DNA from: Coraliomargarita sp.
GTDB lineage: Bacteria; Verrucomicrobiota; Verrucomicrobiia; Opitutales; Coraliomargaritaceae
Assembly (NCBI GenBank): GCA_965216325.1
Contig: OZ244160.1
Coordinates: 800,001-864,000 of the forward strand
DNA length: 64,000 nucleotides
Reading direction: 5' to 3'
Of this stretch, positions 15,508-19,411 are shown piece after piece; the first letter of the stretch is position 1, and each line of letters begins with the position of its first letter. The position numbers and the translations under genes were made by a program. Under the pieces are notes generated by a model, which saw only the letters and a program-made list of their open reading frames with translations, was not told the origin of the DNA and made no database searches.

Positions 15508-15569
15508 GTCTAACAAGTCGCTACGGGACAACGTCGCTAACGCGCCGTCGCCCGAGCTCTACGATGTGT
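15508..15569 (+). other. attC5 (followed by a non-canonical GAT core)
   Basis: GTCTAAC (complement of GTTAGAC); body nearly identical to attC2; ends in GATGTGT. Confidence 0.88.
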
Positions 15570-15833
15570 GAAAGAATTTTACAGTTCTGAGATCGAAGGC
15601 ATTCAGATTTGAAGGGGAAGAGAATCTAACCAGACGCTGGAAAGAAAAAAGAAGAAGAGAATTTTGTTAGACTCCACACGGCTTCGGTGAGAAAATAAAA
15701 AGAGAAGAAAAGGAAAATTTCAGAATCCAAGATTCACAGTGAGAATCACCATCACAGACAACCACAACCAACTGACTGGAATGGACACATCCCTGAAGTT
15801 ATCAATCGCGCGCAGCCGCGTTGATAACTGATT
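15563..15833 (+). other. Cassette 6, ORF-less
   Basis: Opens with GATGTGT and closes with the complementary ACACATC at 15785; purine-rich, no sizeable ORF. Confidence 0.75.
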
Positions 15834-15840
15834 GTTGAAC
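15785..15840 (+). other. attC6 (ATC core)
   Basis: ACACATC, AGTTATCAA/TTGATAACT arms, GTTGAAC. Confidence 0.75.
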
Positions 15841-16139
15841 AAGCCCGCCCTTGGATTAACGGCGCGGCTTAGTATATGCGAAACGCTTTTGGCGGCACTG
15901 CTGGAGGGGCGTTCGGATCGACGCGGCTAGGAGATTTGTAAATCTCAAGCTGCGGCAGGCATGTGGTTTTCCGGCATCATGCCGTAAAACCACATCAGCA
16001 CAGAGAGTTGGTGTGGGCGCAGCTAAATAATGGCGTTTTCGTATCCACGCTACGGATACATCCCAAAAACGGGCACAAGCAAGCACGGCCCAAATCTGAT
16101 GGGATTCGGGGCTGCGGCCTGTCTGTTGAACACGGTTGA

Positions 16140-17243
16140 TCATTTGCGGTAAAGTAAGGCGGTGCTCAGCGGTGGGCCACGGACTGGACGGAGCTTGCCG
16201 ACGCGGTGCAGCTGCCCCTCGCAACAAGGACAACGCAGAGGCTGTTCTTCAGGTAGTTGGATCGCAGGTGCACGGCCGCCGAGCAGGAAGCGCAGCCTGC
16301 GGTATTTATCCCGCGCGGCAGCTGAGAGGGTGCCATAGTGCCGCACGCGTGTCAGCCCCTTGGGCAGAACATGCAGCAGCCAGCGGCGTATCAGCTCGGC
16401 GGGCTCAAGAGCCATCAGCCTGCGCTGGCCCGTAGCCGAATCGGTCCACCATAGCCGCACACGCCCTTGCGCATCGTAACCAGCCAGACGTTCTTCACTG
16501 AAGGCGCTCTTGCCCACATACGCCGCGAGGTAGCGTAGTGCACGTTTGCCACGACCAACCGGTTGAACGTTCACGTTCCAATCCATACGCGCGAGTTGTG
16601 GATCCAGTTCAGCAGACCGGCCCGGATGTTTCTCGCGCAACGCACGCAGGAACTGGTCGCGATAGCTGCGCGCCAGCGCGGCATACGGCAACAGGTAGTT
16701 CTCGTGCTTGGCGCGGATTACTTCGCATCCGCTCTGGCTGAGTGCAGCGGCAGGCACGAGCACGTGCACATGCGGGTGATACTGCACTTGCCGTGTCCAC
16801 GTATGCAGCACCGCCACAAAGCCCGGCTCGCCACCAAAGTGCTTCGGATTGGCAAACAGTTCTTTGATCGCTCCAGAGCTGGCCGCGAACAACAACTGAT
16901 AGGCGACCCGGTCGTAGCGCAGGAAGAACCCGCGCAGTTGCTCGGGCACCGTGAAGGTCAGCATGAAGTATGGCACCGGTAAGCGGCGAGCCTGTTGGCG
17001 TGCTGACCACAGCTGCTGCGTGCGCCCTCCACAACTCGGACAGGCTCGATGGTTGCAGCTGTGATACACATAGTGCTCACGCTCGCAACTGGCACACAGG
17101 TGCACATGCCCGCCCAATCTAGACGTGCGACAACTCAAGACGGCTTCGACTGCTCGCCAGTGTGCGGCAGGGATCTTGTGTGCCCCGCCGCGCGCGCTGA
17201 CATACTCCGGCCAATGCCGCCGCAGTAGATCGGCCAGCCTCAA
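16140..17243 (-). CDS. IS91-family (HUH Y2) rolling-circle transposase
   Basis: Zn-binding CRT..LGG..CASC..HSCNHRACPSC, TFTVP, HUH motif HPHVH, YLAAY, HVLPKG..RVRHYG. Confidence 0.93.
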   Translation of the reverse strand: MRLADLLRRHWPEYVSARGGAHKIPAAHWRAVEAVLSCRTSRLGGHVHLCASCEREHYVYHSCNHRACPSCGGRTQQLWSARQQARRLPVPYFMLTFTVPEQLRGFFLRYDRVAYQLLFAASSGAIKELFANPKHFGGEPGFVAVLHTWTRQVQYHPHVHVLVPAAALSQSGCEVIRAKHENYLLPYAALARSYRDQFLRALREKHPGRSAELDPQLARMDWNVNVQPVGRGKRALRYLAAYVGKSAFSEERLAGYDAQGRVRLWWTDSATGQRRLMALEPAELIRRWLLHVLPKGLTRVRHYGTLSAAARDKYRRLRFLLGGRAPAIQLPEEQPLRCPCCEGQLHRVGKLRPVRGPPLSTALLYRK

Positions 17244-18205
17244 CGCTTGCTGCGCTTCGACAAGGCCGGAGCGATCACACTGTCAAACAGTGCGCTCTGG
17301 CTCTGGCGGCCACCTTCTTCACTTAGCTCGGTTACATGCAGATACACCAGCGTGCTCTTCAGTTCCGAGTGGCCGAGATAGCGACTGACCTGACGAATCG
17401 ACACCCCGTCCTCCAGCAAATGTGTGGCAAAACTATGCCGCAAGGTATGCACCGTGAAGTGCTTGTTGATGCCACTATTGGCGCGGATGATCCGCATCGC
17501 CATCTCCAGCGCCGAGCTGCTCATCGGCTTGGCGCTGCGGTGCATCGCCTGCGCCTGAGAGATGCCTGACTGCTTCCAGCCGCGCCCCACGCCAGGGAAC
17601 AGCCAGTCCGGATTGCGGTGGCACTTATAAAATGCCCGCAACCGCTTGACCATTGCCGGGCAAATCGGCACCTCACGCGCCTTGTTGCCCTTGCCATGGC
17701 GCACGCGAACGACGCCGCGTCCAGAGTCGATATCCGTCGGCTTGAGCTGCAAGGCCTCCTGTAAACGCAAACCACAGTGATAGATCAGCGAGAGCACCGC
17801 CCGAAAGCGACCCTCATGCACACAGGCCAGCACACGCCGCACCTCGTCGCGCGTGAGCACGCTCGGCAAAGGCTCGCGCCGCTGCAGCGTGAACTCCGAC
17901 CACAGCTTCCACTCCCGGGCCAGCACATCACGGTAAAGCGTCCGAATCGGCACCAGCGCCTGATTCACCGTTGACGCGGCCAGCTTTTGGTCGTCGCGCA
18001 GGTAGATCAGATAGTCCAACACCTGACGTTCCGATAGACGGCGCAACCCCGGGCCCTTCGGTTGGTAGTGCTCGCCCAAGCGATTGACCCAATCCAGATA
18101 AGCCTTACGACTACGAGGCGAGTGAGCTTTGCTATGGACATGCGCATAGAACTGTTGATACGTTTGCGAACACTGAGTCTTTGATGATTTGGTATTTTTT
18201 TTCAT
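17240..18205 (-). CDS. Tyrosine recombinase associated with the IS91-like transposase
   Basis: YHCGLRLQE, GKGNKAR, HTLRHSFATHLLE, LGHS..STLVY; lacks the IntI insert; 4-bp TTGA overlap with the transposase start. Confidence 0.93.
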   Translation of the reverse strand: MKKNTKSSKTQCSQTYQQFYAHVHSKAHSPRSRKAYLDWVNRLGEHYQPKGPGLRRLSERQVLDYLIYLRDDQKLAASTVNQALVPIRTLYRDVLAREWKLWSEFTLQRREPLPSVLTRDEVRRVLACVHEGRFRAVLSLIYHCGLRLQEALQLKPTDIDSGRGVVRVRHGKGNKAREVPICPAMVKRLRAFYKCHRNPDWLFPGVGRGWKQSGISQAQAMHRSAKPMSSSALEMAMRIIRANSGINKHFTVHTLRHSFATHLLEDGVSIRQVSRYLGHSELKSTLVYLHVTELSEEGGRQSQSALFDSVIAPALSKRSKR

Positions 18206-18309
18206 CCGGGCAGGTTGGGGCAACTCAGCCTAGCCCGGAACTTTTGACTTTAGAAACCACCCACCAAGACGCCCAAGCACTTAACCAACAGCCGCCGCGC
18301 AGCGGCTTT

Positions 18310-18365
18310 GTTCAACCAGACAGAGTGAGCAACGGCATACGCCGCGCTCATCTTCGACGTTCACT
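18310..18365 (+). other. attC7
   Basis: GTTCAAC ... GAGTGAGCAAC ... CGCTCATCTTC ... GTTCACT; same family as attC4 and attC8. Confidence 0.88.
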
Positions 18366-18374
18366 GGAAAGAAA

Positions 18375-18411
18375 TTGACATTTTAATGTTTTAGCGTTTT
18401 AGTGCTAAATT
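18375..18411 (+). promoter_or_regulatory. Putative internal promoter/operator of TA cassette 8
   Basis: TTGACA at 18375, 17-bp spacer, TTTAGT; repeated TTTTAG motifs just before the ATG. Confidence 0.55.
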
Positions 18412-18633
18412 ATGAAACGCGCTACCGTATATTTTGAAGAGGACCTCCACCTGGCCCTCAAAATGAAGTCTGCTGAGATTTCAACTCCAGTGTCTGAACT
18501 AGTGAATGACGCTGTCCGTTCGGCACTGCTCGAAGACGCTGAGGACTTAGAAGCATTCAAAGAAAGAGAGAATGAACCCGTAATCGACTTTGAAGCTTTT
18601 GTTGCTGCGCTAAAAGAAGATGGAAAGCTATAA
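18412..18633 (+). CDS. Cassette 8 antitoxin (CopG/ribbon-helix-helix)
   Basis: MKRATVYF beta-strand, SELVNDAVR, acidic C-terminus; overlaps the toxin gene. Confidence 0.85.
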   Translation: MKRATVYFEEDLHLALKMKSAEISTPVSELVNDAVRSALLEDAEDLEAFKERENEPVIDFEAFVAALKEDGKL

Positions 18634-18880
18634 GATCGTCATCAAGAAATCGGCAGCGAAAGAAATCGAGAAAATCGAAAAGAAAGACCGAATTCGTATT
18701 GTTGAGAAGATTCGAACCCTCGCTCAAGACCCACACCCAGCAGGGAGTAAAAAACTTTCAGGACAAGAAAAATATAGAATCAGACAAGGCAACTACAGAA
18801 TCTTGTATCAGGTTATTGATACAAAATTAGTCATCAATGTTGTTAAAGTGGGACATCGCCGAGACGTCTACAAAAACTGA
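18620..18880 (+). CDS. Cassette 8 RelE/ParE-family toxin
   Basis: KSAAKEIEK, KKLSG, YRIRQGNYRILY, VKVGHRRDVY. Confidence 0.92.
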   Translation: MESYKIVIKKSAAKEIEKIEKKDRIRIVEKIRTLAQDPHPAGSKKLSGQEKYRIRQGNYRILYQVIDTKLVINVVKVGHRRDVYKN

Positions 18881-18940
18881 CGTGAACCAGTCGGAGTGAG
18901 CAACGGGACAATCGCCCCGCGCTCATCCTTTACGTTAACG
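18881..18940 (+). other. attC8
   Basis: CGTGAAC (pairs with GTTCACT, 1 mismatch) ... GTTAACG. Confidence 0.88.
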
Positions 18941-18973
18941 CCGTCGCCACATCTCGACGATCGACGAAAGAAC

Positions 18974-19411
18974 ATGAAGCTCAAGATCCCTATCGTTTTG
19001 ACAATTTTTGCCGCAAGTAACCTCCTTGCGGTCACAGCAACTAAAGAATTGGACGCTGGGTTGTTGTCCATTTTCGAGCAGATGCAGTCAGGTTCGGATG
19101 CTTCAAAGCTCAAAGGAAAAGAATTTTGTGCCGACCTGACAGTGAAGATCGCCACGGAAAAGTTGCTGATATTCACGGATGCTTACCTCCAAGCGGATGA
19201 AGAAACAAAATACCAAATCGGGAAGTGGATATTCACGCCGAATCAAGTTTCTGAAGTCGCAGCAAAGCGTGGAGATGCATTGACAGTAAAGTTTAAGATA
19301 GAAGAGGTCAGAACAGAAGCGCCCTACGCAGACATGCCACACTTTACCGCAACGATCCTATCCATGGAGCCGACAGGAAGCATGGTTGATCCAGTCGATG
19401 GTGGACAATAG
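18974..19411 (+). CDS. Cassette 9 hypothetical exported protein
   Basis: Start ATG 18974, signal-peptide-like MKLKIPIVLTIFAASNLLA; stop lies inside attC9. Confidence 0.75.
   Translation: MKLKIPIVLTIFAASNLLAVTATKELDAGLLSIFEQMQSGSDASKLKGKEFCADLTVKIATEKLLIFTDAYLQADEETKYQIGKWIFTPNQVSEVAAKRGDALTVKFKIEEVRTEAPYADMPHFTATILSMEPTGSMVDPVDGGQ

Follow-up and report, generated by a model that had tools for sequence, protein, structure and literature searches.

Of all sequence features of integron recombination sites, only the GTT/AAC triplet is regarded as fixed, and a chromosomal integron of Coraliomargarita sp. (Verrucomicrobiota) raises the question of whether this triplet can vary in nature and what such variation would say about the integrase. 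The locus lies on contig OZ244160.1 of assembly GCA_965216325.1 and was analysed as a window of 64,000 nucleotides (nt; positions 800,001 to 864,000 of the forward strand). Coordinates below are those of the window unless the genome is named. In the canonical attC site (59-base element) of class 1 and Vibrio integrons, the outer boxes read RYYYAAC in R″ and GTTRRRY in R′. In cassettes 6 and 9 of the window, the conserved AAC/GTT triplet is absent and is replaced by ATC and G|AT (the bar marks the crossover), with the first G and the third T/A kept. A natural lineage here uses G-W-T (W being A or T), compensated within each cassette. The best explanation, to which a probability of about 0.85 is given, is that the cassettes come in two core flavours, TT/AAC and AT/ATC, both handled by integrases that intrinsically accept G-W-T.

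The four boxes concerned are GATGTGT at 15563, ACACATC at 15785, GATCGAC at 18959 and GTTGATC at 19385. They had been singled out in an earlier note made from the sequence alone; each is present at its coordinate and unique at that attC position, and all four positions are fixed independently by attC structure. GATGTGT sits directly 3′ of the L′ arm of attC5 (..CTCTAC), the position occupied by GTT in attC1 and attC3. The two boxes of cassette 6, GATGTGT and ACACATC, are perfect reverse complements (7/7), and in cassette 9, GATCGAC agrees with the complement of GTTGATC at 6/7 positions; the altered middle base is paired in both, so the claim that a compensated second-base change preserves pairing holds. 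By chance alone, the six free bases would agree this well with a probability of 4^-6 in cassette 6 and of 19/4096 (at least 5/6) in cassette 9. Between cassette start and own R″, the other cassettes of the array are likewise complementary at 7/7 or 6/7 positions, and since this rule holds there, the four boxes are read as cassette ends and not as chance words.

The same variant is found elsewhere in the genome, which is a single contig of 3,064,510 bases with three full-length IntI genes. Sites were sought with an nhmmer profile of the window attCs, followed by two covariance models: R1, built from eight sites of one length class because MAFFT alignments were structurally wrong for long sites, and R2, rebuilt from the R1 matches. 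The attCs form clusters at six genome places; R1 and R2 gave 29 plausible cluster matches and 28 matches genome-wide, all inside these clusters, and no match at E <= 0.01 was found in the genome outside them. Boxes were read off the model alignment, those R″ boxes that are split by an IS91-type element or by group II introns were rebuilt from the insertion flanks, and the counts do not include the degenerate end of cassette 10. The 30 R″ boxes comprise 22 AAC, 7 ATC and 1 ACC, and the 30 R′ boxes comprise 24 GTT, 5 GAT and one with two extra bases (G-CT-TTGGCT). Both ends are known for 24 cassettes (6 AT/ATC, 17 TT/AAC and 1 TT/ACC), none of which is discordant in the middle base. R1 and R2, which derive for the most part from AAC/GTT sites, gave good scores to most sites with ATC or GAT (30.5–74.6 bits with R1).

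Two of the four attI junctions in the genome are of the AT type. The attI of integron 2 reads AACACT G|ATCTGT and is followed by a first cassette with R″ ACAGATC, and an attI-like region without intI reads AACACT G|ATATGT ahead of a first cassette with R″ ACATATC; both matches are perfect. The remaining two junctions, in the window integron and in integron 3, have G|TT. These G|AT junctions, with the exactly matching ATC boxes of their first cassettes, bear out the proposal that such cassettes were integrated with GAT cores. The array that lacks an integrase gene (genome 2278659–2279000), whose first cassette is of the AT type, opens with its attI-like region, of which about 200 nt closely resemble the attI region of integron 3 (genome 2853300–2853560).

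A survey of related arrays for ATC..GAT cores, which the earlier note had called for, found them in number. Model R2 detected attCs in 45 of 81 genomes of the family (E <= 1e-4), and the boxes were counted in 40 array-bearing loci from 11 relatives, with 257 attCs, 255 of them complete at the 5′ end. Their R″ boxes read AAC in 198 cases, ATC in 52 and otherwise in 5 (of 255), while the R′ boxes read GTT in 194, GAT in 56 and otherwise in 7 (of 257). Among consecutive attC pairs on the same strand of one locus, the upstream R′ is a perfect 7/7 complement of the downstream R″ in 160 of 217; pairs with at least three mismatches mostly have a missed site in between. Restricting the pairs to those in which no more than one of the other six positions is mismatched leaves 183, of which 141 are GTT/AAC, 37 are GAT/ATC and 5 are other combinations. 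GAT/ATC is thus a standing polymorphism, carried by about 20% of the cassettes in this family.

The same pairs indicate where strand exchange takes place. Within one attC of the relatives, the cassette's own R″ and the R′ that follows it occur in all combinations (150 AAC/GTT, 41 AAC/GAT, 37 ATC/GTT and 15 ATC/GAT; odds ratio 1.48, p 0.27), whereas the type of R′ almost always corresponds to that of the R″ in the cassette that follows. It is therefore the downstream cassette to which the variable base of R′ belongs. On this sequence evidence the exchange point is between G and W, matching the accepted mechanism and the crossover after G that had been assumed in the earlier note. As W travels with the cassette, junctions between AT and TT cassettes leave both flanking folded attCs with a W-W mismatch beside the scissile phosphate. 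Such a mismatch in the folded triplet is predicted for 78 of 243 integrated attCs of the relatives, or about a third.

The most likely mechanism accommodates both cores in the following way. IntI would cut the folded bottom strand between A/T and C, opposite G|WT, and only the first base would have to be shared between partner sites. W, whether T or A, would arrive with the incoming cassette and, once that cassette is excised and its attC folded, would be paired with the central base of R″. A T-to-A change matched by an A-to-T change would then keep the R duplex perfect and the cassette recombinable. Integron integrases would accept G-W-T intrinsically, so that both flavours could be captured at attI and stored side by side.

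The alternative that survives best, although we consider it improbable, is that core specificity has become relaxed or altered in the course of integrase evolution in this lineage, which would set these enzymes apart from ordinary integron integrases. It would account for a GAT/ATC share of about 20% here when the conservation of GTT was called “absolute” in the integrons known at the time (Frumerie et al., 2010, NAR; PMC2811028), and the IntI of this family does have an unusual N-terminal extension of about 160 amino acids (residues 1–160 in the window IntI). This extension is common to the two other IntI of the genome and to those of the relatives, whose matches begin at residues 9–17 of the window IntI; by Pfam, the SAM-like domain PF13495 matches in two stretches across the whole window protein. 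Against altered specificity, the same paper reports that IntI1 recombines attC sites with compensated T2->A2 changes at or above the wild-type rate: attC x attI1 recombination was increased, and the sites were cleaved in vitro. It also cites GAT as a preferred secondary site, and names K160 of VchIntIA as the only base-specific contact to the triplet. Residues 166–476 of the window IntI align continuously to VchIntIA (PDB 2a3v; E 1.5e-59), IntI-specific insertion region included, and the lysine equivalent to K160 is kept (..IRASKGNKDR..). In addition, a 2023 preprint (10.1101/2022.09.11.507474) gives the consensus of genomic insertions as 5′GWT3′ for IntI1 and IntI3 and as TGWT for IntI2. Since IntI1 handles compensated GAT sites, the insertion consensus is GWT and the lysine is conserved, a changed integrase is not required. 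The suggestion that this integrase accepts a specially broad core is not upheld, and integrases with an intrinsic tolerance of G-W-T remain the preferred explanation.

A second alternative, much less probable still, is that the unusual boxes reflect decay in immobilised cassettes, or boundaries drawn in the wrong place. Cassette 9 is the case in point. As delimited here (18960–19452, + strand), it starts with ATCGAC, contains an open reading frame (ORF) at 18974–19411 that encodes 145 amino acids and matches no Pfam family, and ends in attC9 (19385–19452, + strand; nhmmer E 4.8e-7) with R″ GTTGATC and a hybrid R′ G|TTGGGG. It could instead be drawn from G|TTAACG (18934), the canonical R′ of attC8, which sits 25 nt upstream of GATCGAC, in which case GTTGATC would simply be a degenerate R″. 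The start-to-R″ match of cassette 9 is 6/7 only, and cassette 6 is non-coding and interrupted by an inserted element, both of which suit this alternative. GTTAACG, however, matches the complement of GTTGATC at only 3/7 positions, compared with 6/7 for GATCGAC, and the piece ahead of GATCGAC is itself an attC L′ arm. This piece, 25 nt long (18935–18959, + strand), consists of the 3′ half of an attC, with L′ ..CCGTCGCCACATCTCGAC plus G; the ATCGAC that follows completes the R′ GATCGAC (18959–18965). It matches the attC profile at positions 36–60 only (nhmmer) and is similar to the loop-plus-L′ portion of other attCs in the genome, e.g., that at genome 2277336–392. By its sequence, the remnant is a further cassette reduced to the end of its attC. 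GATCGAC, which the earlier note had placed after attC8, thus stands behind this remnant, and attC8 has an R′ of its own. A single long attC8 (18881–18965) was considered and rejected, because the shorter version already has the fold and the score of a full attC. No homologue of cassette 9 starting with TTAACG was found in the loci searched; more generally, blastn and tblastn searches of the relatives' loci and of the genome with the bodies of cassettes 6 and 9 gave no homologues, the likeness being confined to the attCs. As to decay, random changes would not be matched at the two ends of a cassette, yet the middle base is concordant in 6 of 6 AT/ATC cassettes of the genome, and the relatives have 37 concordant units against 1 GTT/ATC. 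AT cassettes also occur at attI junctions, the entry point of new cassettes.

Sequencing or assembly error at the four positions has a negligible probability, given that Logan contigs of four public runs agree with the assembly without a single differing letter over 15400–15820 and 18292–19500, at a word depth of about 425–1300, and that the pattern recurs at five other genome places and in 11 other genomes. This agreement supplies the check in the reads that had been asked for. A joint 18319->18936 seen in these contigs was rejected as a rearrangement; it stems from another copy of the inserted element with a similar flank.

Several points weigh against the explanation by two flavours and an intrinsically tolerant integrase. 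What was observed directly is the sequences with their co-variation and spread, and their occurrence at attI junctions, whereas we infer that the present IntI proteins recombine either core. The 5 discordant pairs among the 183 comprise one each of GTT/ATC, GAT/ACC, ATT/AAC, GTT/ATA and GTT/AAT, and about four of the “GAT” R′ boxes of the relatives are really G-A-TTxxxx with an extra A. Such sites lie at L038:1135–1190, L074:2953–3013 and L075:3696–3763 and 5035–5103 (locus labels of this study), where the next R″ predicts G|TTxxxx. Related cassettes are not independent, so Fisher-type figures overstate significance and the counts are to be preferred. The boundary of cassette 9 is less certain than that of cassette 6, with its 6/7 match and its start behind a remnant, and attC9 is the weakest of the ATC/GAT sites (15.2 bits and E 0.69 with R1; outside the 28 R2 matches at E <= 0.01), for which its long divergent body rather than its core may be the cause. 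The four Logan runs represent one sample, probably the source of the assembly itself, and exclude assembly error without adding an independent strain. In a sample of the phylum, R2 found attCs in 8 of 14 family members and in 0 of 136 other genomes, a contrast that reflects a narrow, family-specific model rather than the cores present elsewhere, and the counts are accordingly limited to the family.

The distribution of ATC among attC sequences is a further point of this kind. The nearest neighbour of an ATC site is also ATC in 34 of 58 cases against 22% expected, i.e., ATC clusters by attC sequence. At a similarity threshold of 0.7, 10 of the 26 clusters with at least three members are mixed and 2 are ATC-only. 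The combination of mixed clusters and like neighbours points to an ATC state that is inherited within attC families and has switched several times. It is conceivable, if rather unlikely, that the coexistence of GTT and GAT cores is a functional polymorphism maintained across the whole family, one that would divide the array into two partly separate compatibility classes. If so, the W-W mismatch could tune the excision rate, and hence the stability, of individual cassettes, and the repeated switching would need either selection or an undescribed one-step route of conversion.

Cassette 6, the clearer of the two cassettes, is split by the inserted element mentioned above. Its 5′ part (15564–15791, + strand) starts with ATGTGT, has no ORF of at least 60 amino acids and ends in R″ ACACATC (15785–15791). 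The 3′ part of its true attC lies at 18317–18365 (+ strand), reads CAGAC...TTCGAC with a hybrid R′ G|TTCACT, and was located by a model match at 18310–18365 (58 bits) and by comparison of element flanks. The true cassette 6 is thus 15564–15791 plus 18317–18359, ending at G 18359, and its attC consists of ACACATC, CAGAC...TTCGAC and G|TTCACT. Within its non-coding part, at 15627–15672, an R″-like ATCTAAC is followed by CAGACGCTGG and, 39 nt on, by the near complement GTTAGAC, with no L stem between the two. These inner boxes are possibly what is left of a further attC, and cassette 6 may then have arisen by fusion of two remnant cassettes.

The interruption is an IS91-family element of 2,525 bp (15792–18316, - strand; the boundary is ambiguous by 1 nt), which separates the R″ of cassette 6 from the rest of its attC. 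It encodes a Y2 HUH transposase with an N-terminal zinc-binding domain, as found in the IS91 family (16140–17243, - strand; NF033538, 339.3 bits against a cut-off of 125; PF04986 and PF14319), and a Xer/IntI-like tyrosine recombinase (17240–18223, - strand). A BLAST search of 15500–18500 against the genome returned a repeat at about 15791–18340 with two further copies (genome 1299806–1302331 and 2844445–2841920) that are 99.7–99.8% identical, and the word depth of the element is about 2.7x that of its flanks. The three copies lie in three different R″ boxes: ACACAT|C in the window, ACCGAA|C and GCCTAA|C. Their right ends read ..GTTCAA|C and are followed by the spacer and L″ arm of the target itself. 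These comparisons revise two readings of the earlier note. The hairpin at 15792–15840, which ends in GTTGAAC and is attC-like, had been called attC6 and is the end of the inserted element, and what had been called cassette 7 is the element itself.

The element is inserted in reverse to the array, at exactly xxxxAA|C (here ACACAT|C). Viewed on the minus strand it is cassette-like, with a start TTGAAC, an attC-like hairpin end of its own, R″ GTTCAAC and an R′ formed by G plus target bases. Its junctions are compatible with cleavage of the IntI type. In 9 other family genomes, elements share the 57-nt hairpin end; of 18 flanks there, 11 end in xxxxAAC and 3 in xxxxATC. At one locus (L094) the same hairpin occurs as an ordinary attC. 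A literature search on such a cassette-like IS91-family element found nothing.

In its general layout, the window, from a verrucomicrobial genome of Opitutae type, holds a sedentary chromosomal integron with intI, attI and an array of attC cassettes in one direction, as established by ORF listing and family scans. The integrase gene intI (11172–12605, - strand) encodes 477 amino acids and scores 339.5 bits with TIGR02249 against a cut-off of 265. A locus search with this IntI returned two loci only, with IntI that are 70–71% identical. The attI crossover box G|TTATGG (12817–12823, + strand) lies 212 nt from the intI start and is the exact complement of the R″ of cassette 1, CCATAAC (13261); cassette 1 accordingly starts at 12818. 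The + strand carries ten cassette units. Cassettes 1–5 (13261..15569) are supported by covariance model matches, folds and the start-to-R″ rule given above, and their sites are attC1 (13261–13327), attC2 (13810–13871), attC3 (14437–14497), attC4 (14883–14948) and attC5 (15508–15569), the last of which ends in the hybrid R′ G|ATGTGT (15563–15569), all on the + strand. Cassette 8 (18360–18940, + strand) contains a small unnamed ORF (18412–18633) and a ParE-family toxin gene (18620–18880; Pfam PF05016), and ends in attC8 (18881–18940, + strand) with R″ CGTGAAC and the canonical R′ G|TTAACG at 18934 (59 bits; supported by its fold). Cassette 10 (19447–20036, + strand) encodes a Phd/YefM antitoxin (19501–19752) and a ParE toxin (19742–20029) and has the degenerate end CCCCAAAC. 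The array stops before ybeY (20043–20660, - strand), the cassettes reaching to about 20030. The attCs have the usual imperfect inverted repeat R″-L″-loop-L′-R′ with unpaired bases, and when 10 of them were folded as DNA, the bottom strand came out more stable than the top strand in all 10. Rfam matched no attC family in the window, where a single tRNA reached the gathering threshold. The system is an ordinary integron in every defining feature tested, with the exception of the “conserved triplet”.

Other arrays in the genome show further disturbances of the same boxes. Two kinds of group II intron (RF02001, 100–127 bits; one with an ORF of 465 amino acids) occupy attC R″ boxes in the orientation opposite to that of the cassettes, at about 550–557, 2272–2276, 2762–2765 and 2845–2852 kb of the genome (loci L031, L033, L034 and L035). 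Type 1 is 1.92 kb long, is present in five copies that are >99% identical and sits at xxxxA|AC; type 2 sits at xxxxAA|C, and one type 1 copy is nested in the 5′ end of a type 2 intron. These introns are candidates for the group IIC-attC class, whose members carry a reverse-transcriptase ORF and occupy attC in reverse to the cassettes. At locus L032, the R′ with extra bases at the crossover lies at genome 1302500–1302515 and reads ..CTCCAC G-CT-TTGGCT. Nearby, at genome 1302325–1302450, an attC truncated in its loop is joined to a gene fragment, the 3′ part of a homologue of the gene in the first cassette of integron 2; this homologue ends in the same R″, ACAGATC.

For integron specialists the finding is moderately interesting, and it has a practical side in annotation: in these genomes, about one in five cassette boundaries would be misplaced by rules or primers that require GTT/AAC. 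Natural sequences here support what was found in the laboratory, namely that partner sites need to match at the first base only, and they place the in vivo crossover between G and W without an experiment. The mixed arrays also offer ready natural substrates for measuring the effect of a mismatch beside the cleavage site on cassette excision.

A literature search for natural GAT/ATC attC cores, which covered few subscription journals and excluded supplements, found no paper describing them. As far as this search goes, the natural variant of the integron core is new; compensated GAT sites were already known from the laboratory. Like canonical attCs, the sites described here have the R″-L″-loop-L′-R′ architecture, a more stable bottom strand, extrahelical bases and a cassette start that is complementary to its own R″. 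Unlike them, they use AWC/GWT as the triplet, and the remaining four box positions are not RRRY (e.g., GTTCTAG and GTTCTCG). The closest parallel is provided by the engineered sites attCaadA7 and attCVCRd T2->A2, in which (PMC2811028) the change affects the same base pair, with both of its partners in the folded R box altered, and the crossover falls after the first base. Those sites are laboratory mutants recombined by IntI1 in E. coli, whereas the sites in this family are natural, make up about 20% of cassettes, are mixed with GTT sites, occur at attI and are known from sequence. The GWT insertion consensus likewise allows A or T at the second target position; in 10.1101/2022.09.11.507474, it describes double-stranded genomic targets outside att sites, whereas here the variation lies in the cassette's own folded attC.

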